From an uncultured Candidatus Saccharibacteria bacterium (GTDB lineage Bacteria; Patescibacteriota; Minisyncoccia; Phycocordibacterales; CAIZLB01): 54,273 nucleotides of DNA. The notes under the pieces are model-generated. The model ran no database searches, was not told where the DNA came from, and saw nothing but the letters and a program-made list of their open reading frames with translations. A program made the position numbers and the translations under genes. This document shows positions 1 through 50,200 of this stretch, one piece after another. Location: contig CAYQJB010000001.1 in assembly GCA_964417855.1 (NCBI GenBank), forward strand, positions 358,709 through 412,981, written 5' to 3'. Within the stretch, counting starts at the first letter, position 1. The number at the start of each line of letters is the position of its first letter.

Positions 1-73
1 AACCTCTGTAGTATTGTTTTTCTAGAAAAATTTAGTACATTTGTAAAATTTTGTGATACTTCTTCTTTCATGT

Positions 74-994
74 TTATTTATTTAAAAATTTAATAATATT
101 CTCTATCGATTCTTTGTATGTGTATTTTTTTACAATTTCCTGCTGTTTCCTAATTATAGCAAAATAACTCTCTTTTGAAAGCTCTAGACTATTTTGTATC
201 AATTCTGCTATTGTTTCTCCTTGAACATAGCTATCTCCCAGTATATCCATAAATTTTTTAACATTGGTTATTCCGAGTTGTCCATAAGATATGTTTTTAA
301 ACATTCGGCAGGGGAGATAATCTGTATCAACTTGATATTTGCCAGCAATAGCTGGCGCAATTCTGGAAACCCTCACTAAAAATCTATTAAATAAATCAGG
401 AATAAATCTAACCTTGATAAAACTAATTTTGTTTGCCTTAAGTGTTCTTTTTAGCTCATCAATTTCTCTTAGGTTACCCTGGTCTAATTTATTATTCCAT
501 ATGCTTCCGACCCAAAAAACAAATTTATTTTTATTAAATACAGGTTTCATAAATTCCTCAGCCAAGAGATCTGTACCCCACGGCTGGTACAAAGTCCTTG
601 TTTTTGAGTCAAAATATCTTGCTGTATCTATTTTAATGTCTGATTCCTCAGCTCCTTTTGAATATACGGCCAAATTAATGAAGTTTTCTCTTTTAAGTTG
701 TTTTGTAAATATCTCCTTAAGGTTATGAAGACAATAGAAAATATCTTCTCGTATAGGTAGGTTGTAATCTTCAATTTTAAACTTTTCAGGAACCATTCTG
801 CCTACAGGGTCTGCTGTAATAATTAAATCTCCTGGCTGTATATATTTTTGACTTTCCTTTTCATCCTCGACCCAAATGGTTTCATAACTAAGTTTCTTTG
901 CATTTTTGTAGAAGGCTTGATGTATATGACGATGGGTATGGTATTTCTTTCTCAACCCCCATATTACTATTCTTTTGATTTTATTTGTTTCCAT
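74..994 (-). CDS. hypothetical protein, distal gene of the polysaccharide-biosynthesis operon (possible glycan-modifying enzyme)
   Basis: 306-aa ORF whose start overlaps the end of the upstream FkbM gene (981-994), suggesting co-transcription; no motif I can name with certainty. Confidence 0.5.
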   Translation of the reverse strand: METNKIKRIVIWGLRKKYHTHRHIHQAFYKNAKKLSYETIWVEDEKESQKYIQPGDLIITADPVGRMVPEKFKIEDYNLPIREDIFYCLHNLKEIFTKQLKRENFINLAVYSKGAEESDIKIDTARYFDSKTRTLYQPWGTDLLAEEFMKPVFNKNKFVFWVGSIWNNKLDQGNLREIDELKRTLKANKISFIKVRFIPDLFNRFLVRVSRIAPAIAGKYQVDTDYLPCRMFKNISYGQLGITNVKKFMDILGDSYVQGETIAELIQNSLELSKESYFAIIRKQQEIVKKYTYKESIENIIKFLNK

Positions 995-1748
995 TTTTTG
1001 CGTATATATAACCTAAGGATATTTTCGTTAAAAAACCAGCAGACGATAGAGTCTTTAGTATTTCCTCGTGTGAATGTTTGTTGATAGTATCGTGATACTC
1101 CATTGATATTTTATTTACGGTTTTTTTAATAAATTCGATATTTTTTTTATTAATTATTTCATACTCCGCGCCTTCACAGTCCAGTTTAAGAAAGTCTATC
1201 TTTTTAATATTTTTGCTTTTACAATATTCTTCTAAATCTATAACTGAAATAGTTATTTCTTTCATTTCACCGGCTCGTTTATATAGGCTGTGACAACCAT
1301 TATGTATCTTAGACACATAGAAAGTACATTTAGAGTTACTATTGCCAACAGCAAGATTTTCTATAATAAGATTTTTAAAATTATTTAAGACTGAACTTTT
1401 CTTTATTTTATCCGACAAAAAGGGGACAGGTTCAAATGCATACACCTTACCTTTTTGTGCTTTGCTGGCTGCATAAATACTGAAAAATCCATTATTAGCA
1501 CCTATGTCAAAAACCGTATCATTTTCCTGTATCTCAAACCCTTTCGGGTTGTAGTATTTTTCATGCCAGATTTCTGCGAACATTGATAGATCAGCTCTAC
1601 CTATTTTATCTCCTACATATAGAATATTTCCATTTCTTAATATAATATTCTCCAGCTTTAAATCAAGTATTTTTGAAAAAATAACAGATGGCCAGTTTTT
1701 ACACTCGGATATGATCGCTTTTAGTACATTGTAGTAATTTCTAATCAT
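981..1748 (-). CDS. FkbM-family methyltransferase
   Basis: FDIGANNGFFS motif typical of FkbM/Methyltransf_21 SAM-binding site; 4-nt overlap (ATGA) with upstream gene. Confidence 0.7.
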   Translation of the reverse strand: MIRNYYNVLKAIISECKNWPSVIFSKILDLKLENIILRNGNILYVGDKIGRADLSMFAEIWHEKYYNPKGFEIQENDTVFDIGANNGFFSIYAASKAQKGKVYAFEPVPFLSDKIKKSSVLNNFKNLIIENLAVGNSNSKCTFYVSKIHNGCHSLYKRAGEMKEITISVIDLEEYCKSKNIKKIDFLKLDCEGAEYEIINKKNIEFIKKTVNKISMEYHDTINKHSHEEILKTLSSAGFLTKISLGYIYAKNGNK

Positions 1749-2722
1749 GATTTTTTTGCTCTTATTATGCCCCTTCGCAAATATGGCTCCTTTAGTATAT
1801 CATCCCAAATAGATAACATATATCCTTTTGAGTATCCTGTTTCAAAACCATATTTAATTAGTTCATCGCGTAAGGTTATTTCATCATTATGTCTATGGTA
1901 AGAAGCTGTAATAAATTTCATAGGGCTTTTGCTTGATAGTATTTTTTTTGCACCATGGAGTAAATCAAGTTCAGCGCCTTCAACGTCAACTTTTATGAAT
2001 GAGGGGTTTTCCTCAGCAAAGAAGTTGTCTAGAGTGGTGTGGCTATTACTTATATCATCTGACACATACTTACCAATAATTTGTACCTTATTCTTCCAAG
2101 GTTCAAATGTTGCTTTTAGCGCCTCTATGGATTCTGGGTCATATTCAAATAAATAGATTTTTTTTACCTTATCAACAACTCTCAAAGAAAACTCCCCCTC
2201 TGCGGCACCAATGTCTGCTAATATATCATCTTCTGACAGGTTAAAATCCTCTGTTAAATAAAGATGCGGAGATTCAGGGTCTTGTTCCATCAATAAGGCG
2301 GAAAAGACGCTTTTAATTTTTGCCTCATCGTAGCTCCTCTTAAAATATAATTTTTTTGCATCCAGATATACATATCTCAGTCCATTTTCCAGATCAGTTA
2401 ATACCTCTACATTTAATTTTGAATATTTTTTAGTAAACTCATAGGGGAATAATGATGACTTATTGTGTTTCAGAAATTCTACCACTTTTTTGATATCACT
2501 ATCAATCTGTGAACTAGACAGACCATTATAATATTTAAGCATGGTTCGCTTAAAGGTATAGCTACTAAAACTTGAGTTTACATAAAGAATTATATTTCGG
2601 ATCTTCTTGTTAGTGATTAGTTTGGCAATTGGTTTAAGTTTTGTTTTTAGCTGAAAAATTATCTTGTAGATTTCTGTAGACAGAGAACCTGTTTTAGTTT
2701 TTTTACACATTATATTAGACAT
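1745..2722 (-). CDS. FkbM-family methyltransferase-like protein (second copy)
   Basis: ADIGAAEGEFS motif in the C-terminal half; translationally coupled with its neighbours. Confidence 0.6.
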   Translation of the reverse strand: MSNIMCKKTKTGSLSTEIYKIIFQLKTKLKPIAKLITNKKIRNIILYVNSSFSSYTFKRTMLKYYNGLSSSQIDSDIKKVVEFLKHNKSSLFPYEFTKKYSKLNVEVLTDLENGLRYVYLDAKKLYFKRSYDEAKIKSVFSALLMEQDPESPHLYLTEDFNLSEDDILADIGAAEGEFSLRVVDKVKKIYLFEYDPESIEALKATFEPWKNKVQIIGKYVSDDISNSHTTLDNFFAEENPSFIKVDVEGAELDLLHGAKKILSSKSPMKFITASYHRHNDEITLRDELIKYGFETGYSKGYMLSIWDDILKEPYLRRGIIRAKKS

Positions 2723-3779
2723 TTGAGATTAGTTTGATAAGCCCTTTCTCCACAGATTGAATGGAATAATTTTGCTCTATCATATCTATGTTTTTTTGTC
2801 GATACACCGCAACAACACTTGGATTCTTTATATAATATTCTATATTCAGGGCAATTTGTTTATAACCATTTACTTCATGAATTAGCGATGAGTTTTTGAA
2901 TACATCCTTAAACGACATAATGTTAGGTAAACACAGTACGCACCCACACAGTGCAGCATCGTAAACCGCTACACACTGACCCTCATCAAAAGAGGAATTA
3001 ATATAAATCAGATTTTTGTTTAGAGACATAACAAGCTCTTTGTTTGGTAAAAAACCCTGTAGTATAAAATCCTTCTTAAATTCAGAGGCTTCAATAAAAT
3101 CAATAACTCTTGTATCAAAAATTTTTCCAATAATATTAATTTTTATTAAGGGATATTTTGATTTTATTAACTCAAAGGCTTTTAATACAGTCAAAATGTT
3201 TTTCTTTTCGGTTACATTTCCAAAGCAAACTAAATCCCTTCTCTCTACTCCTGTCTCTTCTAGTTTAAAAACATCTTGAGAAACAACCAGTGGTACTACA
3301 AATAATTTGATCCCTTTTGTTCCTTCCTTAAGTAAAAATTCTTTTTCAGTTTCATTGTTTAATCTAATTGCAGAATAAAAATTATATACAAAATTTTGAA
3401 TAAGTTGTTTTATTCTCGTCTGCCTTTTTGGTTGAGTGTGCGCCATAAAGATAGTTTTTCTTGCAAGAAATGGTACAACAAAAGATTGCCATTCGTAGCT
3501 GTTGACGTAAAAAACGCCCCCCTGGAAAGAAAACTTCAATATTTGATACAAGAAGTTTAAAAAATTTTTATATTCCAGAACCTCTGTGAGTTTATCAAAA
3601 TGAGGATCGTTTTCCATATCCAATCTACTGCCACCAACTATAGCATAGGTTTTAAAGCCCATATCCTTTGCGACCTTAATGGCATGAAGATGATAGTTCT
3701 CCTCAGGTGCAAAACTATACATGTGAGGTGAATAACCCCATATTATTGAAATGAATTTTTTAGTTTTTTCTTTTTTCAT
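2715..3779 (-). CDS. glycosyltransferase family 1 (GT4-like)
   Basis: C-terminal GT1 signature region (VCFGNVTEKKN...INIIGK), 354 aa. Confidence 0.7.
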   Translation of the reverse strand: MKKEKTKKFISIIWGYSPHMYSFAPEENYHLHAIKVAKDMGFKTYAIVGGSRLDMENDPHFDKLTEVLEYKNFLNFLYQILKFSFQGGVFYVNSYEWQSFVVPFLARKTIFMAHTQPKRQTRIKQLIQNFVYNFYSAIRLNNETEKEFLLKEGTKGIKLFVVPLVVSQDVFKLEETGVERRDLVCFGNVTEKKNILTVLKAFELIKSKYPLIKINIIGKIFDTRVIDFIEASEFKKDFILQGFLPNKELVMSLNKNLIYINSSFDEGQCVAVYDAALCGCVLCLPNIMSFKDVFKNSSLIHEVNGYKQIALNIEYYIKNPSVVAVYRQKNIDMIEQNYSIQSVEKGLIKLISNV

Positions 3780-5083
3780 GATAATGGTTTAAAGATTGCT
3801 GAAACGAAAGCTTTGCGTTGGTCCTTCATTCCACGTAATGAAATAGTTATTAAAAAAGGTAGGGTATAGGCAATTATGTTTGCCATAGCAGCGCCCTTGA
3901 TTCCCCAAATCGGAATAAGAATATAGTTCAACGAAAGGCTGATAATCATGCCTATTGTATTTAAAAATAATATGGTTTTAAATTTATTTTGAGCAAGCAG
4001 AAATTGCTGTAGGGCTGTTCCAATAAATACTCCGATAATTGACCATATGTAAATTCTTAGTATTAATATACTTGGAAAATAAGCGGGTCCGTATAATGTA
4101 TTAATTATTAACGGAGAAGATATGTAAATAAAAATAGATATTGCAAAGGCAGAGTAAAATAATAAAGTATATAGTCTTTTACTTCTAGATAAAAATAGAT
4201 CATGATTCGTTTTTTGAGCATTTAATATTGCTGGAAGAAGTGATGCGCAGACTACACTAGAGATGAAAAACCATACTTCAGAAAATCTAACGGCAATTAC
4301 GTATAAACCAACTGATTCTGATCCCATAAGGACCTTTATAAACACTTGATCTATTCTTACATAGACTGAAGAGGCTATTGCGGCCAGAGTAAAAGGCCAA
4401 GAGTTTGTAATAAAGTAATAAACTAATTTTTTCTTTAGTACCCAAGAAAAAATAGACCCCACGTATTTTTTATAGAGATAGGTGTATCCTATAACACTCA
4501 TTATATTGTCAAACACATATGATAGTAAAAGGAATATAATTGGTAGGCCTAGGAATACCATTATAAGTTTGATTATTGAGGAGATAAAGCTAATACACAT
4601 ACCTAGTATGGATACAGGTTTATTGTTCGCGTGTGATTGAAAATAATAGTCTATGACATTAAAGGATTGAAATATAGCAAATGTCGAATATGCTAATACT
4701 AAAAGCGTTGTTGATTGGTTGTGGGCAAAAAATAAAGCTGAGACTGTTGACGCAATTATTATAAAGAAACTATTTATAAATTTTATAAATATGGCTGAAC
4801 CTAATATTTTATTAGTATTTTCTGGCTCGTGATTTAGTTTTTTGATAACCAAAGAATCAATGGCAAATAAAGTAATGCCAGCAATACTTACAAAACTTAT
4901 AATAAAATTCAACGTACCATATTGTTCTGGACCTAGCTGTCTAGCAATATAAATACTTACGAATAACGATATAACCAAAGAGAATATCCTGCCAAAAAAC
5001 ATCCACCCTGTATTCTTCAAATACTTCTGAAAACCCGCATGCTGCCATTTTTCTTTTATGTAAGATAGGGGAATCGTAGGCAT
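3776..5083 (-). CDS. polysaccharide flippase (Wzx/MOP-superfamily) membrane protein
   Basis: 435 aa, about 12 hydrophobic segments, position in a glycan operon. Confidence 0.65.
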   Translation of the reverse strand: MPTIPLSYIKEKWQHAGFQKYLKNTGWMFFGRIFSLVISLFVSIYIARQLGPEQYGTLNFIISFVSIAGITLFAIDSLVIKKLNHEPENTNKILGSAIFIKFINSFFIIIASTVSALFFAHNQSTTLLVLAYSTFAIFQSFNVIDYYFQSHANNKPVSILGMCISFISSIIKLIMVFLGLPIIFLLLSYVFDNIMSVIGYTYLYKKYVGSIFSWVLKKKLVYYFITNSWPFTLAAIASSVYVRIDQVFIKVLMGSESVGLYVIAVRFSEVWFFISSVVCASLLPAILNAQKTNHDLFLSRSKRLYTLLFYSAFAISIFIYISSPLIINTLYGPAYFPSILILRIYIWSIIGVFIGTALQQFLLAQNKFKTILFLNTIGMIISLSLNYILIPIWGIKGAAMANIIAYTLPFLITISLRGMKDQRKAFVSAIFKPLS

Positions 5084-5176
5084 GATAGTGTTTGATATTG
5101 TATCACAGGGGTATATTTAAAATGATATTGAATTTTGTTGAATACGTGTTGATTTACTTCGAAATCTCATAATTAA

Positions 5177-6244
5177 CTACATTTTCACCAACCCCCAGCC
5201 TTTGGGTGCCTGATCTAAATAAACCTTAATCTGAGCCTCATTTAATAGACCTTTGTGGGAGCCTACATATTTACACACACTCATTGAATTAATGGAAGCC
5301 CATTTAAGACAATCTTCCAATGCCATCCCTCTCATGTGACAAGCTGAAAAGGTTGCAGAAAAGGCATCTCCAGCGCCGGTTCTTTCTAATGGGGGATTAA
5401 TATCGTTAAAAATTGGCATTCTGTAAAGGTCCTGTTCCTGTAAAACATACGCCCCATTTGGTCCGTCTGTGATTATTGGAAGACTAACACCAAGCGCTTG
5501 TATTCCAAGTAATAACCTTTTGATATTTTGTGAACGTTCTTTCGTATCTAAGCTCGTCTTGATGATTTCTAATTCTAATAACTTTTCAGCTTCCTCAATA
5601 TTACAGAAGAACAAATCTGTTCTTGCATAAATTTGCCTTAATGCAGCGCGACCCATCTTTAATTGAAATGTTCCAGGCTGAAAAATTAATTTTACATCCG
5701 TGTACTTTTCTAAATAGTTTATAAGTTCATTATGTACACCAACAGAGTGATCGCTTATTGAACTTAAATATATCCACTTGGTATTAATAATCTCAGGTAG
5801 TTTGTAGTCACAATCTTCATGTTTGGTTAAAATTGTTCTATCTGCCTTGTACCACAGAATGTAGTGATAATTTGTTTTACTTTCTTTGTTTACTGTTACG
5901 AATGATGTTTCAACATGCTCCTTATTTAATTTTTCGATTGCTTTCTGCCCATTAAGATCACCTCCAACTGTAGTTATTATCGCGGTACTTAGACCTAGTC
6001 TTGCTGAAGCTACTGCTGCATTTCCGCTATTTCCAACGGCAAAAATCTCTTCAGAGTATTTATAAGGAATCTTTTCTCCAAATGCTAGTCCTAATTCTCT
6101 GTGGCCGGTAATTGGATTAATCGACTCTCTAACCTGATTTCCAACTTGCTCCTGATTAATTTCTATAAAAGCATCAACAGCGACATCGCCAATAGTTACG
6201 ATGTCATATTTGTTATTAAAGATCTTTTTGAATAAGGAAGCCAT
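5177..6244 (-). CDS. PfkB-family carbohydrate kinase
   Basis: N-terminal GG motif region and C-terminal TGAGDAF..A PfkB signature 2. Confidence 0.8.
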   Translation of the reverse strand: MASLFKKIFNNKYDIVTIGDVAVDAFIEINQEQVGNQVRESINPITGHRELGLAFGEKIPYKYSEEIFAVGNSGNAAVASARLGLSTAIITTVGGDLNGQKAIEKLNKEHVETSFVTVNKESKTNYHYILWYKADRTILTKHEDCDYKLPEIINTKWIYLSSISDHSVGVHNELINYLEKYTDVKLIFQPGTFQLKMGRAALRQIYARTDLFFCNIEEAEKLLELEIIKTSLDTKERSQNIKRLLLGIQALGVSLPIITDGPNGAYVLQEQDLYRMPIFNDINPPLERTGAGDAFSATFSACHMRGMALEDCLKWASINSMSVCKYVGSHKGLLNEAQIKVYLDQAPKGWGLVKM

Positions 6245-6287
6245 ATTTATGGAAATATTATAACATATTTTTTATTTAATATTGCTG

Positions 6288-6315
6288 TTGACATGCGGCT
6301 TGATGTTGATAGAAT
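6288..6315 (+). promoter_or_regulatory. sigma70-like promoter (TTGACA, 16 nt, TGaTAGAAT) of mini-unit A
   Basis: perfect -35 hexamer at 6288-6293, 16-nt spacer, extended -10 at 6307-6315; the same architecture sits at the paralogous locus 42387-42414. Confidence 0.45.
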
Positions 6316-6321
6316 ATACAT

Positions 6322-6380
6322 GATCAGTAGAGATCATTAATCTATCGCTTAAGGGCTCCCAAAAGGAGTCCTTTTGGCTT
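6322..6380 (+). ncRNA. putative small RNA A, convergent with and abutting the 3' end of NYN gene A
   Basis: predicted start about 7 nt after the -10; two hairpins (ATGATC/GATCAT and GGGCTCC/GGAGTCC) then TTTT at 6372-6375; about 70% identical to 42421-42478 with compensatory changes in the terminal stem. Confidence 0.35.
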
Positions 6381-6381
6381 T

Positions 6382-7164
6382 CTAGAGTCTGTTGATTATA
6401 TCCTTTATTTCCTTGCTAATTTCTTTTGGCCAGCAGATAAATTCTCTTATTTTTCTTATATCAAATATGGTGACTGTGGTCTGGTTCAATTCGAATGAAA
6501 TGCATCCGGACATAGCAAAAATATATACTTTTCCTCCACCTTTTTCTATTTGTATTATAAGGTCTGCGAAATCACTATCCGTACTCCACAAGATGTAGTT
6601 TTTTGTGATTCCATTTTCGAAATCCCTTTGCATATCTCTGCTTATTTCAACATCAAAATTGCATTTTCTCTCCTCAATGTAAAGAACACCTTCTCTGTTG
6701 AGTTTTGTAAGTCTTCCGTTTAGGTGCTCAATAGACGCACTGTCCATTATGGAAATAAAATTTTTTTTGATAAAGTTACTTAAAATAACTGTAGAATTTG
6801 TAGATGTATTGGAGGTATCTATTGAAATTCTAATTAATTTCACAGCCTTTGTAGAGAGGGTATACCCTGAACTTCTAAGTTCGCTAATTTGTTTTATAGA
6901 CTCTTTGCTACTCTCCGATGTTCCAGTGTATATATTAACAGCTCTAATTGAGTCAAAGGAATCTAAAAATTGTTTAAGTCTTACAAAATGGATATGAAAT
7001 CCGAGTTTGTTTTGCCAGTGAATGACATTTTGCCAATCGATATAGATATTTGTTGAAGTGCTAAAAATTCTATTTAATTCGATTATTAGCTCGGGGAAAA
7101 GTTTTGCCAGCATTCTTATTCTATCGGTTTTGGGATTAAACATCTTTATTTTATACAGGATCAA
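6382..7164 (-). CDS. NYN-domain (PIN-like, LabA-like) putative ribonuclease, paralog A
   Basis: IYIDWQNV, CNFDVEI and ILWSTDSDF acidic motifs of the NYN fold; about 50% identical to the ORF at 42498-43271. Confidence 0.65.
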   Translation of the reverse strand: MILYKIKMFNPKTDRIRMLAKLFPELIIELNRIFSTSTNIYIDWQNVIHWQNKLGFHIHFVRLKQFLDSFDSIRAVNIYTGTSESSKESIKQISELRSSGYTLSTKAVKLIRISIDTSNTSTNSTVILSNFIKKNFISIMDSASIEHLNGRLTKLNREGVLYIEERKCNFDVEISRDMQRDFENGITKNYILWSTDSDFADLIIQIEKGGGKVYIFAMSGCISFELNQTTVTIFDIRKIREFICWPKEISKEIKDIINRL

Positions 7165-7250
7165 ATGAAAGAAATTATGAAGATTTATAAGTCCTCATGT
7201 GGATAACTTTTTGAATAACTTTATTAATTTGAATATGTTATTATGTCAGT

Positions 7251-27814: not shown

Positions 27815-27881
27815 AATCTGAATACTATATCATATAAACCAATATTGTCAATATTTATTATTTAATATATAATAGTCGTAT

Positions 27882-28622
27882 ATGGATCAATTTGAATTAA
27901 ATATAAATACGAGTGAGGCTAATAAAACCAGTAAAACCGCAAAGACAAAGACTGTGTCTAAAAAACTTATGGAGCGGTATGATGTGTTGTTCATAGTTGG
28001 ATTTGGATTGGCTTTTCTGACGACCTTGGTAGTATTTTCGATTTTTGGCCTAATTCCAAAGGAATTAGCTGTTTCACCCTCTGGTAATTCAAGCAACAAT
28101 TTGAGCCTAGAAAGTCAATCAAATACAAGTTTGTTTGGTGTTGATTTCACAAAAGGAACTGATAAAGTACAAAAAATAACCACAATTTCTAGTGATGATT
28201 TACCTGTTAGAATCGTAATTGAAAAGGCTGGAGTTGATACGAAAATAATGAATCCAGAGTCATCTAGCGTAACTTTTCTAGACAATGAACTATCAAAGGC
28301 CCCAGTTAGATACCCTGGGTCAGGGACTCTTTCCTCAGGAAATATCTTTGTATTCGGGCATTCTACAGGCTTTAAGGTGGTTCAAAATCAAGCCTTTAAG
28401 GTATTTAATAATATTAAGAATTTAAAGAATGGAGACCAAATAATGGTATATTCTCAAAGCGGAAAAAGTCATATTTATAGCGTTACTGATGTGAAAGAGG
28501 TGAGTAAAAATGACACATATATAAAATTTGACGCCAGCAAGCCAAGTATTACTTTATCTACCTGCGACAGCTTTGGGCAAGCGAGTGATCGATACGTGGT
28601 TAGTGCTGTTTCAAGTCAATAA
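27882..28622 (+). CDS. sortase (transpeptidase)
   Basis: N-terminal TM anchor; catalytic His (FGHSTG) and TLSTC active-site Cys motif. Confidence 0.8.
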   Translation: MDQFELNINTSEANKTSKTAKTKTVSKKLMERYDVLFIVGFGLAFLTTLVVFSIFGLIPKELAVSPSGNSSNNLSLESQSNTSLFGVDFTKGTDKVQKITTISSDDLPVRIVIEKAGVDTKIMNPESSSVTFLDNELSKAPVRYPGSGTLSSGNIFVFGHSTGFKVVQNQAFKVFNNIKNLKNGDQIMVYSQSGKSHIYSVTDVKEVSKNDTYIKFDASKPSITLSTCDSFGQASDRYVVSAVSSQ

Positions 28623-28748
28623 TTAGTGTTTTTTACACAAATAAGGCTTATAATATGGCTAATTTGACTTATCGGCCAAGGAGTAACGTATTTATGGAAG
28701 GCTAAAACTATTGACAATATAGTTATTTTGGTATATAATATAACTACT

Positions 28749-29954
28749 ATGTTTAAGATCAACAAAACAACAAAATACACAATTTTTGCATTAGCTGCAT
28801 TCGTAATGTTCACAGCAATGCCAATTACAGCTAAGGCTGGAGAGGATGATGGATATTATTATGGCTCAGGGTATGAAGATAGTTTTGCATGGGATAATAC
28901 TTCTTATAGTTCCGATCAATCAACTTCATATTATCCAAACTATGTAGACTATACTACACCGTCATACACATATTCAGAACCCTCAGTATCATACGTTCAA
29001 CCAACAACATATTATGATAATTCCTATTATCCATCATACTACTCAGATTATTCATACGGATATAGTTCAGGATGTTCATCATGTTCAACTGGAGGATATG
29101 TTTATACACCAGCACCTCAAATAGTTTACGTACCAAATACACCAGTAGTTCAACCTATAGTTACTCCAGTTTATAATAACTTAACTGCATCTTGTACTAT
29201 AAATCCAAATAATGTTTACCTAAATGATTCAGTTACACTTTCTGGAAATGCTGCCGGAGGTAATGGGTCATATTCATATTTTTGGTCAGGATCAGATGGT
29301 ATTTCAGGATCTTCACAAGTAATAACAGGTAGGTTTACAAGTATCGGATCAAAAACTGTTTCTCTAACAGTTACTTCAGGAAACCAATCGGTTACAAGAT
29401 CATGTAATGCATATGTAAACCAAAATACTAATTACAACTATAATAATAATTACAATTATAATAGTAATTATACAAATCTAACTGCAATATGTTCAGCGCT
29501 GCCAACAAATGCAAATGTTGGAGACAATGTTATATGGACAGTATACCCAAATGGTGGAAATGGTGCGTACACATATTCTTGGACAGGAACAGATAGTCTA
29601 AGTTATGGTAATGCATATCAAATTCAACAAAGATATACAACTCCTGGGACAAAGACTGCAAATGTTACTGTTTACACAAATAATGGCCAATCAGTTACAG
29701 TTTCATGTAATGTTAATGTAACTGGATCAGTAGTTGCAGGAACTCCAATTTCAGGAATTTATCTAAATGAAGTACCAGCGACTGGAATTGATTTCAACAT
29801 GAAGGTTGCTCTGTATGTTATTGGATTAACACTTTGGTCAGCCTTTGTAGGATTCATGCTAGTTTCAAAAAGAAAAACGAAGCTTGCTCTTGCAAACAGA
29901 TCAAAGATAGAAGACTTCAAACAAGAAAATCTTAGAAAGAAAGGATTACTGTAA
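28749..29954 (+). CDS. sortase-substrate surface protein with two PKD-like repeats and a VPATG sorting signal
   Basis: signal peptide; two about 85-aa repeats (Y-Y-WSGSDG / YTYSWTGTD) resembling PKD domains; C-terminal VPATG, hydrophobic stretch and KRKTK tail (tripartite cell-wall sorting signal). Confidence 0.7.
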   Translation: MFKINKTTKYTIFALAAFVMFTAMPITAKAGEDDGYYYGSGYEDSFAWDNTSYSSDQSTSYYPNYVDYTTPSYTYSEPSVSYVQPTTYYDNSYYPSYYSDYSYGYSSGCSSCSTGGYVYTPAPQIVYVPNTPVVQPIVTPVYNNLTASCTINPNNVYLNDSVTLSGNAAGGNGSYSYFWSGSDGISGSSQVITGRFTSIGSKTVSLTVTSGNQSVTRSCNAYVNQNTNYNYNNNYNYNSNYTNLTAICSALPTNANVGDNVIWTVYPNGGNGAYTYSWTGTDSLSYGNAYQIQQRYTTPGTKTANVTVYTNNGQSVTVSCNVNVTGSVVAGTPISGIYLNEVPATGIDFNMKVALYVIGLTLWSAFVGFMLVSKRKTKLALANRSKIEDFKQENLRKKGLL

Positions 29955-32776: not shown

Positions 32777-32977
32777 AAGTTACAGAATAGCAGTATTTTG
32801 GGGAATTTGGAAGGGTTCCATTTTTGTTGCAACTCACCTTTATAATAACTATATTATGGATGCCTTATTGACATTACTACATAATAAATTCAGCTTTTCT
32901 TTAGGATTTATTTATTAAAATTTTAACTCTATTGTGTAGTATAGATAATATTAATGCCTCTACAGTCAAGAATAAAC

Positions 32978-33451
32978 ATGTACATTGATAGTGCTAATTT
33001 ACATAAATCCGCCAAAGGACTGGGTTTTGAAATCGACTATAAGAGATTAAGAATCTGGCTTAGCCAGAAATATAATATAAATAAATTTTACCTCTTTATT
33101 GGATACATGGAACAGAATCTGAAAACATATGAATATCTAAAGGGGTGCGGTTTTAATATAATATTCAAACATACATTATTTATTGGAAACAGTACAAAAG
33201 GTAATTGTGATGCTGAACTAGTTTTAAAAATAGTATCCGATTATTATGAGAAGTCTTTTAGTAAATGTTTCCTAATTACCGGCGACGGTGATTTTGGCTG
33301 TGTTGTGGAATTCCTACGAGACAGAGGTGTTTTTAGTGCACTAATTTCACCAGATGAAAGAAATTGCTCGTTTTTGCTTAAAAATAAAAATATTGAAATA
33401 ACATTTTTAAATCATCATTATTCTAAATTTTCTATAAAGTCCAAGTTGTAA
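32978..33451 (+). CDS. NYN-domain putative ribonuclease, paralog D
   Basis: MYIDSANL, GNCDAELV and LITGDGDF motifs; first ATG consistent with the NYN N-terminus is 32978. Confidence 0.7.
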   Translation: MYIDSANLHKSAKGLGFEIDYKRLRIWLSQKYNINKFYLFIGYMEQNLKTYEYLKGCGFNIIFKHTLFIGNSTKGNCDAELVLKIVSDYYEKSFSKCFLITGDGDFGCVVEFLRDRGVFSALISPDERNCSFLLKNKNIEITFLNHHYSKFSIKSKL

Positions 33452-33454
33452 AAA

Positions 33455-33506
33455 TAAAAAGGCCCTCGATGCAGACGCATCTGCATAAAGGTCCCTTTCT
33501 TCATAT
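33455..33506 (-). ncRNA. putative small RNA D, convergent with NYN gene D and reaching its stop codon
   Basis: minus-strand TTGACA (33537-33542), 18 nt, TATAAT (33513-33518); transcript contains AUGCAGA-ugcg-UCUGCAU hairpin and ends in a U-tract (plus-strand A-tract 33452-33462) next to the NYN stop at 33449-33451. Confidence 0.25.
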
Positions 33507-33641
33507 GCTCATATTATATAAAAAGGGAGGGTGTGTTGTCAAGCAAAAGCTTTGAAAAACTGGCGTTTTAGGGTAAGCTATAGACCTGTTGCTAAATACG
33601 TGTCACTAAATTCGCGATAAAAGGCATCCAGCTTACATTAT

Positions 33642-41591: not shown

Positions 41592-41625
41592 TTTGGGGTC
41601 AGGCACCATGGTGCCTGACCCCAAA
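41592..41625. promoter_or_regulatory. 34-bp GC-rich perfect palindrome in the rnc 5' region
   Basis: TTTGGGGTCAGGCACCA|TGGTGCCTGACCCCAAA; lies between the nusB-Nudix stop (41580) and the rnc ATG (41635). Confidence 0.5.
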
Positions 41626-41634
41626 CAAACAAAA

Positions 41635-42330
41635 ATGACTAATGCAAATATTTCAGAATTTGAAGAATCGATAGGGATTTCTTTTATCGATAAAAATTTA
41701 ATAAAAAAGGCTTTTACACACAGATCTTATTTGAATGAAAATAAAAGCCTAAAATTGGGACACAATGAAAGATTGGAGTTCTTGGGTGATGCTGTGCTTG
41801 AGCTTGTTGTTACAGACTTTTTATATAAAAAATTTCCTCAGAAAAATGAGGGAGAATTAACTGCACTTCGCTCAGCTCTTGTTAAAGCAGAGACCTTGGC
41901 AGCTGCTGCTGAACTTGCTGGAATGAACGCATATTTATTGCTTTCAAAAGGTGAATCAAAGGATACAGGACGAGCTAGACAGTATATTCTAGCAAACACT
42001 TTTGAATCAGTGGTTGGAGCAATTTACCTAGATCAGGGATATGACATCGTTGCAAAATTTATTGCAGATCAACTATTTGCACAAATTGACGATATTATTG
42101 AGAATAAAACTTTTATCGATTCAAAAAGTAGATTCCAAGAAATGGCGCAAGAAAAAACTGGTTTTACACCATCATACAAATTAATTAAAGAAGTTGGTCC
42201 GGATCACAACAAAATTTTCACAGTCGCAGTTACTGTTGGTGAAGAAACTATTACAGAAGGTGAGGGCAAGTCAAAACAAGAAGCCGAACAAATGGCTGCA
42301 GAGAAGGCTCTTGAGATTAAGGCTTGGTAG
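41635..42330 (+). CDS. rnc: ribonuclease III
   Basis: ERLEFLGDAVLELVVTDFLY RNase III signature plus C-terminal dsRBD; first ATG after the palindrome is 41635, and the ORF-track start at 41593 is a TTG inside the palindrome. Confidence 0.85.
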   Translation: MTNANISEFEESIGISFIDKNLIKKAFTHRSYLNENKSLKLGHNERLEFLGDAVLELVVTDFLYKKFPQKNEGELTALRSALVKAETLAAAAELAGMNAYLLLSKGESKDTGRARQYILANTFESVVGAIYLDQGYDIVAKFIADQLFAQIDDIIENKTFIDSKSRFQEMAQEKTGFTPSYKLIKEVGPDHNKIFTVAVTVGEETITEGEGKSKQEAEQMAAEKALEIKAW

Positions 42331-42386: not shown

Positions 42387-42414
42387 TTGACATTTCTTTT
42401 GCATTTGGTAAAAT
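42387..42414 (+). promoter_or_regulatory. sigma70-like promoter (TTGACA, 16 nt, TGgTAAAAT) of mini-unit B
   Basis: same -35 hexamer, same spacer length and same TG-extended -10 as 6288-6315. Confidence 0.45.
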
Positions 42415-42420
42415 TACTGT

Positions 42421-42478
42421 GATCATAAGATCGTTATAACGCTGGCTTAGGGGCTCCTGTAAGGAGCCCCTTTGGCTG
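42421..42478 (+). ncRNA. putative small RNA B, convergent with NYN gene B
   Basis: GATCATAAGATCG... then GGGGCTCC-tgtaa-GGAGCCCC hairpin and TTT; about 70% identical to RNA A, with compensatory stem changes (GGGCTCC/GGAGTCC versus GGGGCTCC/GGAGCCCC). Confidence 0.35.
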
Positions 42479-42497
42479 TCTGTATATTTTCATGCAA

Positions 42498-43271
42498 TCA
42501 AAGCAGATTACTAGGTTCATCAATTATATCTTTTATTGAGCTGTAAATTTCCCTTGGCCAGCAAATAAATTCCTTAATCTTCTTTATTTCAAAAACCCCA
42601 ATATTTAGTTTAACCAGTTCTCTGGAGGTCCTACCGGCTGTTGAAAATATAAAAATACCCTTATTTTCTTTTGTTATAGCGTTTATCGGGTCAACAAAAT
42701 CACTGTCTCCGCTCCATAGGATGAAGTTATTAATATTATTTTTATATAAATCAAGAAACATGTCTCTAGCTATCTCCACATCAAAATTACATTTTTTATC
42801 TTTCAGGTAAAAAACTCCCTTGTCATTTAAATCTTTAAAGAGATTATTTATTGATTCTATTGCCTTAACGTCGAGAACAGATAATAATGGTTTTTTAACA
42901 AAAGGTTGTAAAAGTAAGGTAGAGTTTTTGGATATATTTAAAAAATTAATAGGGTATAACATTATTTTTACCAATTTTGTTTCAACCTTATACCCGAGAT
43001 TTGTAAATTCAGTTATTGATTCTTGTGATCCCTCATCATTAGTAAGAGTTCCTGTATAAATATATACAATCTTAATTGTGTTGAAAGAATCAAAAAAATG
43101 CTTCAACCTCCTTGGGTTTATATGCCAACCAAGTTTGTCTTGCCAATGTATTACGTTTTGCCAGTCTAGATAGATATTTGAAGTCGTGGCAAAAATCTTT
43201 TCGAGTTCAATAATTACTTCTGGAAAAAGTCTTGCAAGATTTTGTATTCTTTTTGTCTTAGGGATAAACAT
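42498..43271 (-). CDS. NYN-domain putative ribonuclease, paralog B
   Basis: IYLDWQNV, CNFDVEI and ILWSGDSDF motifs; paralog of 6382-7164; TGA stop. Confidence 0.65.
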   Translation of the reverse strand: MFIPKTKRIQNLARLFPEVIIELEKIFATTSNIYLDWQNVIHWQDKLGWHINPRRLKHFFDSFNTIKIVYIYTGTLTNDEGSQESITEFTNLGYKVETKLVKIMLYPINFLNISKNSTLLLQPFVKKPLLSVLDVKAIESINNLFKDLNDKGVFYLKDKKCNFDVEIARDMFLDLYKNNINNFILWSGDSDFVDPINAITKENKGIFIFSTAGRTSRELVKLNIGVFEIKKIKEFICWPREIYSSIKDIIDEPSNLL

Positions 43272-43458
43272 ATATAGTGTTGCATATAATATAAAAAGGT
43301 AGATAAATAAAATCCAAAGATTATATATGGTACCTGTGGATAACTTCTACAGATGAAATTGAGTTGAACCTGTTATGCATTTAATGTTTGTGGAGGCATA
43401 CTAATTTAGTATATTATATGTTATATTATATGAACTTGAGTACATATTGATAATAATA

Positions 43459-47267: not shown

Positions 47268-50200
47268 AAATTCATAAACAGAGCTCGCAATAAAAAAAAT
47301 ATATTCCTACTCGGGATATTTTTTATGTTTGCAATAGTTCTAATCCCCAGCGTTTCAGAAGCATCAATGTTGCTTCCTAAAGATATTGGAACTGGAGCAA
47401 CTGGAGAAATCAATACTTGTGGCGAATTGATTTCTGGTGAATATACACTAACTTCAAATGTTACAGCAGAAGGTACATCCTCTTGTTTTATCATCAGTGG
47501 AGATAATGTGAAAATAAACGGCGGAGCGTTTACAATATCGGGAACAGGAGAAGTTGCGATTGATGCAAGAGTACGAGATGTTGTTGCAACAAGTTCTCTT
47601 GTAAAAGGTGCAAATGGATATACAAACATAATTATCAACGACCTTAACATCACAGGTTTTACTGTAGGTATTAATGCAAGTGGTAATAGTGATGACGGTG
47701 TCATTGGAGTAGATGAATCACCAAGATCGGGGAACGGTGGAACTGGAGGTGATGTCTTAATATCATACTCGTCAATAGGTAGTATTTTTACAAATGGAGG
47801 TGATAGTACGACAGCCTCTGCTGGCGCAGGAGGAAGTCTTTATGTATTGGACACGGATTTAGATATTTCAAATAGAACAATATCTCTTTTAGGGGGTACA
47901 GGGACAAACGGAAAGGAACCTGATGGAGGTTTGACTCTCAAGTACACTGGCGCACTAACAAAGACAAATCTTACCCTAAGTTCCCTGAACTTCTTCAATA
48001 TATTTATTAGTAACGATACCCAAACTCCAACCACATCTTTTGGAATATATGCTGGAGGTACCTGGCCAATTTTACCAGGGGCAGTGTCCTCTTGTGGAAC
48101 CCTGCTTGGGCCTGGAATATTCACACTGTCAGGAAATGTAACTTCTACCTCATCTACTTGTTTTTTGATTTCTTCAAATAATGTAACAATCGACGGCGTT
48201 GGACATTCTGTCATTGCAAGTGATGCTTCTACTACTGCGTACGCAATAGTGGCGGGGAATTATGATTCAACAACAATTGCTTCAACTACAGTTTTGGGGT
48301 TTGTAAAATACATTAACTCAAGTAGTTCAGTTACAATTTCGGGTGGTAATGTCGATCTATCAAATAAATACATAAAAGCTGATACCCTTACTGTTTTGGC
48401 AGGGACTCTTGATGTTACAAATACAATTTTTGCAGTACGTATTTTAAATCTTAACTACGGCGCTTCAATTACAGGGGACTCTACAGCAACCACAGAAGGT
48501 CCTACTTCTCTCAAAATAAATAATTTTGATTACGGATTAAAGAATACGGAGTCTTTAGTTACTAATGGTTGGGTAGCTAGAAGTTCGGTAAAAAATTGGT
48601 ACTCAATTACTTCGTCTTTAGATGGAAAAAAACTAGCGGCTGTTGAATACGGAGGTTACATTTACACCTCCACGGACTCTGGTCTAACTTGGGCTTCGAA
48701 TAATAATTCATCAGGAAGTCATAACTGGTCTTCGATTACGTCTGATGCCTCTGGAACAAAACTCGCTGCTACTGAATTTAGTGGTTATGTCTATACCTCA
48801 ACAGACTCAGGCCTAACATGGTCTTCACATAATAATAACAATAATTCTAGCCCTAAATCTTGGACTTCAATAACATCCTCAATTGACGGAACAAAACTAG
48901 CGGCTGTTGAATACGGAGGTTACATTTACACCTCCATGGACTCTGGTCTAACTTGGTCTAGTCGTGCAAGTGATTATCCAACAAGAGATTGGGTGTCAAT
49001 CACCTCATCTACCGATGGTTCAAAACTTGCTGCTGTTGAAAGTAATGGCTCTCTTTATTTTTCTGCAGACTCTGGTCTGACATGGTCTACAAATAATGAG
49101 TCTTCTGGTATTAGACATTGGACTTCAATAGCTTCATCTGCTGATGGTTTAAAATTGGTTGCAGCTGGATTAGAGCCTGTTGCAGGTAATTATACAGGAT
49201 ACATTTACACTTCAACAGACTCAGGCCTAACATGGTCTACAAATAATAATTCTTCTGGATTACACAAATGGCTTTCTGTAACTTCTGACTCATCTGGTGC
49301 AAAGCTTGTTGCTGTGGAAGAAGATGGTTATAGATATACTTCCATAGACTCTGGTCTAACATGGTCTGCAAGTAGTGATTTTGCATCATCAACTCGTGCT
49401 ACTTTGAGTTCATCATTAGACGGATCAAAAGTGGTGGAGGCTGTATATGGTAAAAATATTTACACACACACCGTAGTTCATCCAGACTTTTCAATAAATA
49501 TTTTAACTCCTAATGCTGGAGATAACATTCAGTACTGGCAGTCACCATATATACTATGGGGATCAGCACAAACCTGTTATTATTCATATGATAATTTTTT
49601 ATCAAGTAATAGCGTAAATTGTTTACTTAACGGATCTGATATTCTCAAACCTGCAAGTGCGGGAGATAAAACTTTGTATGTTAGGGGTGTGGATAATCTA
49701 GGTGTTGTAATAAATCGACAGGTAAACTTTCATTATAATAATAAGGATATATTAATTAATGAACCTGCTTTAAGTTCTGAAAAATCAGCTACAATATGGT
49801 TTCCAAACATTAATTACAGTATTTCAAATAAAAGCCTTAAATCATGTTCTTATTCATATAATAATTTTGCTTCAACTACATCCTCAGATTGTTCATTGAA
49901 TGGTTCAGATATTTTACCTCCTACTTCACACGGTTCCAGTACTTTATATATTAAAACTGTTGACCAAAATGATAATGAAAGTTTGGAAAATGTACAGTTT
50001 ATGTATTATTTTGGTTATAGTACAAATATTTCTGCCGATTTTAGCTATTGGAATTCTGTTGCTACATCCTTGGATGGAACAAGGATTGCGGCGATTAGTG
50101 CGGGACTTTACATAAGAATTTCCTCTGACTCTGGGTTGACGTGGAAAAATATTGATGGAAGTAATGGGACAACTAATATGAATGGTCGTGGTTGGTCTAA

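Follow-up and report, generated by a model that had tools for sequence, protein, structure and literature searches.

Convergent, structured small RNA genes predicted at the 3′ ends of NYN nuclease genes in uncultured Patescibacteria

Introduction

What are the short promoter-hairpin units that face the 3′ ends of four NYN-domain genes in a stretch of Candidatus Saccharibacteria DNA, and what could they do to the nucleases beside which they lie? The stretch, called the window here, is 54,273 nucleotides (nt) long (GenBank assembly GCA_964417855.1, contig CAYQJB010000001.1, positions 358,709 to 412,981 of the forward strand) and has a G+C content of 35%. NYN/LabA-like proteins are among the commonest function-unknown proteins in Patescibacteria; to our knowledge, neither a function nor a partner has been described for them, and we know of almost no regulatory RNAs in these small genomes. 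A first-pass annotation, made from the letters of the window alone, had proposed that each of the four NYN genes is paired tail to tail with a unit running from a sigma-70 promoter to a terminator on the opposite strand, i.e., a short antisense RNA in the manner of type I toxin-antitoxin pairs. Here, we follow up this proposal by comparative sequence analysis. Each locus is, as predicted from sequence, a two-gene module composed of an NYN nuclease gene and a dedicated gene for a structured small RNA (sRNA) of about 40-65 nt with its own sigma-70 promoter.

Results

Promoter-hairpin units at the four NYN loci

Sites that match the sigma-70 promoter consensus in at least 11 of 12 positions occur eight times in the 54 kb, both strands counted, and four of the eight are adjacent to an NYN gene (Table 1). 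Three of the remaining sites lie just 5′ of start codons (27845+, 27851- and 28711+), and the eighth (14289-) is inside a coding region. At a loose threshold of 9/12, promoter-like sites are no more frequent than in shuffled sequence. The near-consensus promoters at 27824-27882 and 28711-28752 stand 8-9 nt 5′ of an ATG without a Shine-Dalgarno sequence, which suggests leaderless or near-leaderless mRNAs in this organism; a promoter just before the start, similar to this pattern, is also seen at the NYN genes of related loci.

The RNAs predicted at the four loci have folding z-scores of -3.4 to -3.8 and belong to three types, with loci A and D sharing the A-type. At locus A, the terminator hairpin GGGCTCC-caaaa-GGAGTCC plus TTTT occupies 6353-6375, and the promoter, this hairpin and the NYN-A stop codon all lie exactly where the first-pass annotation had put them. 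The second hairpin (P2) of sRNA-A consists of a GC clamp, an internal loop and a 9-bp stem with a conserved G·U pair; the RNA matches the A-type covariance model described below at 6311-6387 (71 bits, E 1e-14) and has a minimum free energy (MFE) of -22.1 kcal/mol (z -3.7). For sRNA-D, the match extends over 42410-42485 (57 bits, E 5e-11) and the MFE is -27.6 kcal/mol (z -3.8). No further A-type copy was found in the window, the covariance model matching loci A and D only. The U-tract of sRNA-C (MFE -21.6 kcal/mol, z -3.8) ends at the NYN-C stop codon, and the final two bases of sRNA-B overlap that of NYN-B. The earlier claim of a unit beside each NYN gene holds for all four loci. Its placing of the terminator end at or within a few nt of the stop codon holds for loci A, B and C, where hairpin and U-tract are clear, and not for locus D, where the RNA ends about 18-20 nt short of the stop codon and the U-tract is weak. 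A terminator signature at loci A and B was called on the RNA strand only. At all four window loci, a gene lies beyond the NYN gene on the sRNA strand.

Six-codon ORFs (open reading frames; ATG or GTG) start at the predicted 5′ ends of sRNA-A (6320-6340) and sRNA-D (42419-42439). A small peptide gene was considered and rejected, as these ORFs are missing from the other loci; loop lengths that vary by non-multiples of three and stems that vary by compensatory substitutions also speak against peptide coding. The units can therefore be kept as short and non-coding, as first proposed.

A conserved RNA family at A-type loci

The comparative evidence is strongest for the A-type. We collected 80 A-type loci from species-representative genomes, fetched by protein alone, of which 79 had enough 3′ flank to be tested; covariation analysis used 80 sequences. 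All 79 testable loci had a convergent A-type RNA unit opposite the NYN gene, so the search of related genomes that the first-pass annotation had called for recovers the promoter-hairpin unit throughout. This recurrence, together with the finding that half of the eight best promoters of the window are NYN-adjacent, bears out its argument that four units at four loci are not a chance arrangement.

The A-type RNA is about 62 nt long and consists, after the promoter, of a first hairpin (P1, mostly with GNRA loops), a single-stranded linker, the long P2 and a short U-tract. In related loci, the linker is 12-14 nt long and single-stranded with the consensus AAUUCUAAA. P2 has an invariant G-C/C-G clamp (80/80), a UU/UUK internal loop and a 9-bp stem, whose G·U pair is retained by 76 of 80 sequences. 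RNAalifold gave 15 base pairs, 11 of them with compensatory changes. In the model-based alignment, 99.2% of the cells of paired columns can pair, a share that falls to 85.4% when columns are shuffled and to 60% or less when the register is slid, and double changes fill 190 cells vs 38 in shuffles; P1, which lies outside the terminator, covaries in four of its four modelled pairs. Searched with the covariance model, 460 kb yield exactly one copy for each NYN gene and no other. The promoter is conserved as well: in the 58 nt upstream of P1, 73 of 79 loci have a site of at least 9/12 and 50 of 79 a site of at least 10/12, a score reached by 0.7% of random windows. The RNA sequence is highly conserved across phyla, while the stem sequences differ between paralogous modules of one genome.

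Which strand folds can be told from the same alignment. On the strand opposite NYN 99.2% of the cells pair vs 89.3% on the NYN strand, where 121 G·U cells become C·A. P2 has a mean stability of -16.6 kcal/mol on the RNA strand and loses a mean of 6.8 kcal/mol on the NYN strand, with 62 of 63 distinct sequences agreeing; the GNRA loops and the U-tract are likewise found on the RNA strand. Folding energy, loop type and the G·U pairs thus all identify the strand opposite NYN as the folding strand. Of the 79 loci, 40 have the NYN stop codon in the U-tract and 28 have it within the RNA gene, and in the other 11 it follows 1-40 nt further on; i.e., in 68 of 79 loci, with the two genes convergent, it is within or abutting the RNA gene, whose transcript ends are predicted ones. 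Judged by these comparisons, the RNA genes are real and under selection for structure on the strand opposite NYN.

Other RNA types at other NYN subfamilies

The B-type RNA was found in seven of the seven distinct loci examined, including two viral contigs of IMG/VR and a second paralogue in GCA_037127815.1. The B-type unit is composed of a convergent promoter, present at the homologous loci, followed by ACCAGACCUGAAAGGCAUCC-loop-GGGUGCCUUUCGCUGUU, and it ends at the NYN stop codon. Its hairpin of about 12 bp keeps a conserved U·G, and compensatory changes are seen twice in its lower stem. No other hairpin precedes it in B-type RNAs, which carry the conserved single-stranded motif ACCAGACC. The second paralogue just mentioned (L091, contig JBAXXP010000004.1 of GCA_037127815.1) is a fifth or later NYN-sRNA module; its B-type protein is 69% identical to NYN-B, and it adjoins mreB.

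The C-type unit, i.e., a convergent promoter, a purine-rich leader UAUGAAGAAG and a two-part UNCG hairpin, is present at all C loci fetched by protein, and the RNA is conserved with compensatory changes in seven distinct sequences. A profile search of the collected DNA added two more, one adjoining a C-type NYN gene (L040) and one orphan (L164, see below). At a C-like NYN gene met by chance (L112), a promoter and a leader-like start overlap the 3′ end, yet the C profile was negative there. Two divergent NYN genes (L139:1079-1260 on the plus strand and L154:4354-4535 on the minus strand) face a fourth type of convergent promoter-hairpin RNA, with a common linker motif GGGU(A/U)UACAUCC. As far as the sequences tell, NYN genes are generally paired with a convergent small RNA whatever their subfamily, and the RNA type differs from one subfamily to the next.

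Reverse search and orphan RNA genes

We also asked the question in reverse. A DNA pattern made from P2 only was scanned over metagenome contigs and 80 loci were examined, five of which had too little flank. A convergent A-type NYN gene adjoins the RNA in 70 of the 75 testable loci. The five loci without NYN represent four independent cases, two of the loci being nearly identical (L115, L142, L151/L180 and L107). All keep P1 and a promoter that can still be recognised, which is near consensus in four of the five. Their neighbours are MreC/MreB, a MutH-like endonuclease, phage-like genes with a methyltransferase, and a low-complexity ORF: the L115 orphan is convergent with MreC, the L142 orphan is convergent with the MutH-like endonuclease, and the phage-like surroundings with a DNA methyltransferase are those of L151 and L180. 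The C-type orphan (L164:3915-3965) has its promoter and no adjacent NYN gene. The association between RNA and NYN is very strong but not absolute.

The NYN genes and proteins

Window genes were annotated from the Patescibacteria metagenome-assembled genome GCA_037127815.1, contig JBAXXP010000001.1. All four proteins contain the NYN domain PF01936 (E 1e-10 to 4e-18, 42.6-66.6 bits vs a gathering score of 24.2), which confirms the four genes first proposed, and profile searches of all window ORFs revealed no fifth NYN gene. The four loci were correctly placed in the first-pass annotation; the start codons of NYN-A and NYN-B are revised in Table 1. NYN-A and NYN-D belong to a family of about 253 residues with more than 700 homologues (711), mostly from Parcubacteria and Paceibacteria. 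The NYN-B family (about 213 residues) has 2,821 homologues and the NYN-C family (about 160 residues) 702. Residues D43, N46, D171, D196 and D198 (NYN-A numbering) are invariant in the four paralogues and 19 family members. The AlphaFold2 model of NYN-A (predicted local distance difference test score 89) has the NYN fold, with 2qip (VPA0982) and the Marf1 NYN domain (5yaa) as best matches in the PDB. On sequence and model, the proteins are NYN-family (PIN-like) nucleases with an intact predicted active site. A-type NYN proteins share 44-58% identity among each other, while the RNA sequence and structure stay conserved.

We considered a known defence system as an explanation of the NYN modules and rejected it: PADLOC returned only weak, partial matches to the NYN domain, and NCBIfam returned none. 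In a search for tractable relatives, the B-type NYN gene was absent from deposited phage genomes, and C-type relatives on rhizobial plasmids had only about 32% identity.

Table 1. Coordinates of the predicted modules and of the linked DnaA boxes (positions in the window)
Feature	Position	Strand	Remarks
sRNA-A sigma-70 promoter	6288-6315	+	TTGACA, 16 nt, TG-n-TAGAAT; 11/12 consensus plus extended -10 TG
sRNA-A (A-type)	6320-6381	+	P1 6320-6337, single-stranded linker 6338-6346, P2 6347-6378, U tail
NYN-A nuclease gene	6382-7143	-	253 aa; PF01936; stop codon 6382-6384; longest ORF from TTG at 7164
Perfect DnaA box TTATCCACA	7198-7206	-	55 nt upstream of NYN-A start codon
sRNA-B sigma-70 promoter	11199-11226	+	TTGACG, 16 nt, TG-n-TATAAT; 11/12 plus TG
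sRNA-B (B-type)	11233-11269	+	5′ single strand ACCAGAC, hairpin GGCAUCC/GGGUGC with conserved U·G, U-tract
NYN-B nuclease gene	11268-11921	-	217 aa; PF01936 E 4e-18; 100% identical to P0121 of GCA_037127815.1
NYN-C nuclease gene (ORF)	32954-33451	+	likely start 32963 or 32978, giving 157-162 aa; PF01936
sRNA-C (C-type)	33452-33508	-	purine-rich 5′ single strand UAUGAAGAAAG, long two-part hairpin, UNCG loop, U-tract
sRNA-C sigma-70 promoter	33513-33542	-	TTGACA, 18 nt, TATAAT; 12/12 consensus
sRNA-D sigma-70 promoter	42387-42414	+	TTGACA, 16 nt, TG-n-TAAAAT; 11/12 plus TG
sRNA-D (second A-type in window)	42419-42480	+	P2 has G-C where the family usually has G·U; U-tract weak
NYN-D nuclease gene	42498-43271	-	257 aa; 51% identical to NYN-A
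Perfect DnaA box	43335-43343	-	64 nt upstream of NYN-D start codon; position aligned with NYN-A box

DnaA boxes

Two of the three perfect DnaA boxes of the window are upstream of NYN-A and NYN-D, in intergenic regions common with the divergent fba and ORF 43447, respectively; the third (49688-49696) is inside a coding region and looks like chance. The RNA promoters of the window have no DnaA box. Among 78 A-type promoter regions, 16 have a perfect box (TTATCCACA or TGTGGATAA) within 90 nt upstream of the start of the covariance model, where 0.4 are expected; the 398 kb hold 25 perfect boxes altogether, so these 16 form the majority. They are found in either orientation, mostly 2-4 nt upstream of the -35 element, typically as TGTGGATAAC-N2-3-TTGAC (box-bearing loci include L001, L004, L006, L009, L017, L032, L037, L047, L048, L067, L070 and L075). 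The same arrangement of box and promoter is seen at a B-type viral locus (L221) and at both fourth-type loci (L139 and L154). These candidate boxes suggest that the balance between nuclease and RNA may be tied to replication status.

Genomic setting

Housekeeping genes surround the NYN loci of the window (pheST, tsf, rpsB, prfA, rpmE, fba, pfkB, rnc and others). Elsewhere, the modules occur in several copies per genome and are spread across phyla, and neither the flanking genes nor their orientations are conserved. B-type modules adjoin HsdM of type I restriction-modification or the phage-like Amidase_2 and Collar (L084-L087, L092-L093, L221-L222), the C-type module in L100 adjoins a HEPN/MNT pair, and IMG/VR viral contigs carry three A-type and two B-type loci. 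It seems that some NYN-RNA modules travel with mobile or defence DNA.

The RNase III gene of the window (rnc, 41593-42330, plus strand) encodes the ERLEFLGDAVLE signature and a double-stranded RNA-binding domain. It ends 57 nt before the sRNA-D promoter, and its transcript may use the sRNA-D hairpin as terminator. Functional synteny with RNase III was rejected, as rnc adjoins sRNA-D but no other locus. The sign of GC skew and the gene orientation (from all-minus to mostly-plus) switch at about 5-7 kb, at the NYN-A locus (window ~1-7250). A replication origin at this locus was considered and is not supported: there is a single DnaA box, with no box cluster, and the same box recurs 36 kb away at locus D. 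A dnaA gene is absent from the annotated stretch of the source contig.

Discussion

How the RNA may act on the nuclease

We put the chance at about even (roughly 0.5) that the RNA is an antitoxin-like regulator of the nuclease that acts at least partly by antisense pairing. In this proposal, the RNA would be a negative regulator. On the NYN strand P2 is weakened, since each conserved G·U of the RNA strand becomes a C·A mismatch, and the NYN mRNA, lacking a good terminator, would read into the RNA gene; the terminator signature, too, is at loci A and B on the RNA strand only. An abundant sRNA would then pair perfectly with the 3′ end and stop-codon region of the mRNA, the pairing probably nucleating at the single-stranded linker, and the duplex would be cut by the RNase III that the genome encodes, or translation termination would be hindered. 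Interference between the convergent transcripts may come on top of this. The RNA may also be recognised by a protein, for which the NYN nuclease is the most plausible candidate, and a DnaA box, located at the RNA promoter in many genomes and 5′ of NYN-A and NYN-D in the window, would tie the balance to replication status.

The cis-antisense route is supported by the geometry, the strand-asymmetric hairpin, the mirror-image single-stranded linkers and the presence of RNase III. Recognition by a protein is suggested by conservation beyond antisense needs, subfamily-specific motifs and the orphan RNA genes. Computation does not separate the two routes.

Several points weigh against the antitoxin-like antisense regulator. 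Where the sRNAs start and end, and that the two RNAs overlap, is predicted from sequence. The conserved unpaired nucleotides, the invariant GC clamp and the GNRA loops exceed what cis-antisense pairing needs. Four independent A-type orphan genes (five loci) and one C-type orphan keep promoters with no NYN gene adjacent, so the RNA is not strictly dependent on a cis target. A stabilising role by analogy with GadY (see below) would fit the same geometry. Typical type I toxins, moreover, are small membrane peptides and not nucleases. Pairing of the RNA with the NYN 5′ region and start codon was also tried and rejected, as cognate pairs (duplex energy -7.25 kcal/mol) do no better than non-cognate ones (-7.76 kcal/mol).

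Alternative explanations

The RNA may instead be mainly a protein-bound partner of NYN, i.e., a type III-like antitoxin, a decoy substrate or a cofactor or guide, with the convergent position only keeping the two genes linked. We regard this as a serious possibility, although we would not favour it. The clamp (80/80), the G·U (76/80) and the GNRA loops are kept while the proteins are only 44-58% identical; the RNA types are subfamily-specific, with their single-stranded motifs (ACCAGACC in B and UAUGAAGAAG in C); stem sequences differ between paralogous modules within one genome; and intact orphan RNA genes lie far from any NYN gene, one of them convergent with a different nuclease, the MutH-like one. 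On the other hand, type III RNA antitoxins are same-strand upstream tandem repeats, unlike the NYN units, and both the precise abutment of the RNA 3′ end on the stop codon in most loci and the strand-asymmetric hairpin fit an RNA-RNA or transcriptional interplay more naturally. The more specific proposal that, in Patescibacteria and other phyla, each NYN paralogue binds its own small RNA, which would serve as inhibitor, decoy or specificity cofactor, with expression wired to DnaA and replication status, we hold only tentatively, as rather doubtful. If true, the RNA-nuclease modules would form a class of their own beside types I and III of toxin-antitoxin systems, and their RNAs would be some of the first in the candidate phyla radiation for which a link to function has been proposed.

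Could the unit be a conditional terminator, with the short RNA as its terminated product, where regulated read-through makes a long antisense RNA that silences NYN by transcriptional interference, or drives the co-directional gene beyond? Such a gene is present at each of the four window loci, U-tracts are short or broken up (most of all at locus D), and P1 with the linker could be a sensor. We consider this reading improbable: flanking genes vary in orientation among the other loci, no pairing that could act as an alternative anti-terminator is evident, P2 is highly stable (mean -16.6 kcal/mol) and the B-type RNAs lack an upstream hairpin. A trans-acting or housekeeping sRNA that is independent of NYN and merely syntenic with it, for instance by sharing a terminator, would account for orphan copies and for the high sequence conservation across phyla; it is made very improbable by the near 1:1 association in both directions (79/79 and 70/75), by several copies per genome that are each tied to a paralogous NYN gene, by three or four unrelated RNA types each tied to its own NYN subfamily, and by flanking genes that are otherwise not conserved. 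The plainest explanation, that ordinary bidirectional terminators and chance promoter-like hexamers in AT-rich DNA produce the pattern with no functional RNA, is hardly credible. A 35% G+C genome in which 9/12 sites are no commoner than in shuffled sequence does favour it. Two observations that the first-pass annotation had named as refuting its proposal, promoter hexamers not conserved in related genomes and hairpins that are only ordinary bidirectional terminators, are not borne out: promoters are conserved at 73 of 79 related loci at 9/12 or better (50 of 79 at 10/12 or better), 11 of 15 pairs have compensatory changes with 190 vs 38 double changes, P1 covaries in all four modelled pairs although it lies outside the terminator, and P2 is 6.8 kcal/mol stabler on the RNA strand. 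Half of the best promoter matches of the window are, in addition, at NYN loci. From sequence comparison, the bidirectional-terminator explanation is already contradicted.

Taken as RNA-restrained nucleases, the modules would carry the principle of RNA antitoxins over to PIN-like nucleases. The RNAs described here make up three or four new families, each dedicated, deeply conserved and structured, and the DnaA boxes that recur beside them suggest that RNA turnover may be linked to replication status in uncultivated bacteria.

Comparison with known systems

The first-pass annotation had taken the combination of an NYN nuclease and a convergent antisense RNA for something not yet established, and our searches agree. 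Rfam 15 gave only tRNA-Thr for the whole window at gathering threshold, and scans by E-value of loci A, B and C had best E-values of 7.8, 0.14 and 0.078, all far below gathering scores; a known RNA family was rejected at both stringencies. No NYN-associated RNA was found in full-text literature searches or among the terms looked up in the text of the 224-motif paper (Weinberg et al. 2017, PMC5737381).

Among the closest known systems are type I toxin-antitoxin pairs. The NYN modules resemble txpA/RatA, bsrG/SR4 and yonT/SR6 in that convergent genes for a protein and a small RNA overlap at their 3′ ends (for SR6/yonT, see PMC5848175). They differ in that the NYN protein is a soluble nuclease of 157-260 aa and not a small hydrophobic peptide of usually under 60 aa. 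The NYN-associated RNA is also far more conserved than known type I antitoxins, and orphan RNA genes exist. In Bacillus subtilis, these three pairs combine convergent 3′-end overlap with a strong promoter of the RNA itself, and an RNase III-cleaved duplex is expected.

GadY/gadX of Escherichia coli is a further case of a small RNA opposite a 3′ untranslated region, where pairing directs RNase III processing. The NYN modules share with it the encoding of a small RNA opposite the 3′ end of a neighbouring gene; GadY, however, stabilises its target and is a single enterobacterial locus, not a mobile, multi-copy module tied to a nuclease.

SymE/SymR (PMC1891008) and RalR/RalA are type I-like precedents in which a cis-encoded antisense small RNA controls a toxin that is a nuclease. 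SymR overlaps the 5′ end and ribosome-binding site of symE, whereas the overlap at NYN genes is at the 3′ end only; RalA needs Hfq; and the protein families of SymE and RalR are unrelated to NYN.

Type III systems (ToxIN, CptIN, TenpIN) likewise place an endoribonuclease beside a dedicated structured RNA, in multiple, horizontally spread copies, and neutralisation of NYN by its RNA would be an analogy to them. Their antitoxins are upstream, same-strand tandem repeats processed by the toxin, while the NYN RNA is single and non-repeated, with one covariance-model match per locus, and is encoded on the opposite strand at the 3′ end; the folds of ToxN and NYN differ as well. VapBC and other type II systems with PIN toxins share a PIN-like metal-dependent nuclease in a multi-copy, patchy module, and a dedicated neutraliser gene would again be the analogy. 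There the neutraliser is a protein from the same operon; the NYN genes have no partner protein gene and an RNA gene in its place. As the small hydrophobic toxin of type I and the same-strand tandem-repeat RNA of type III are both absent, the NYN-RNA pairs would best be described as a new variant of RNA-controlled toxin-like modules, neither type I nor type III.

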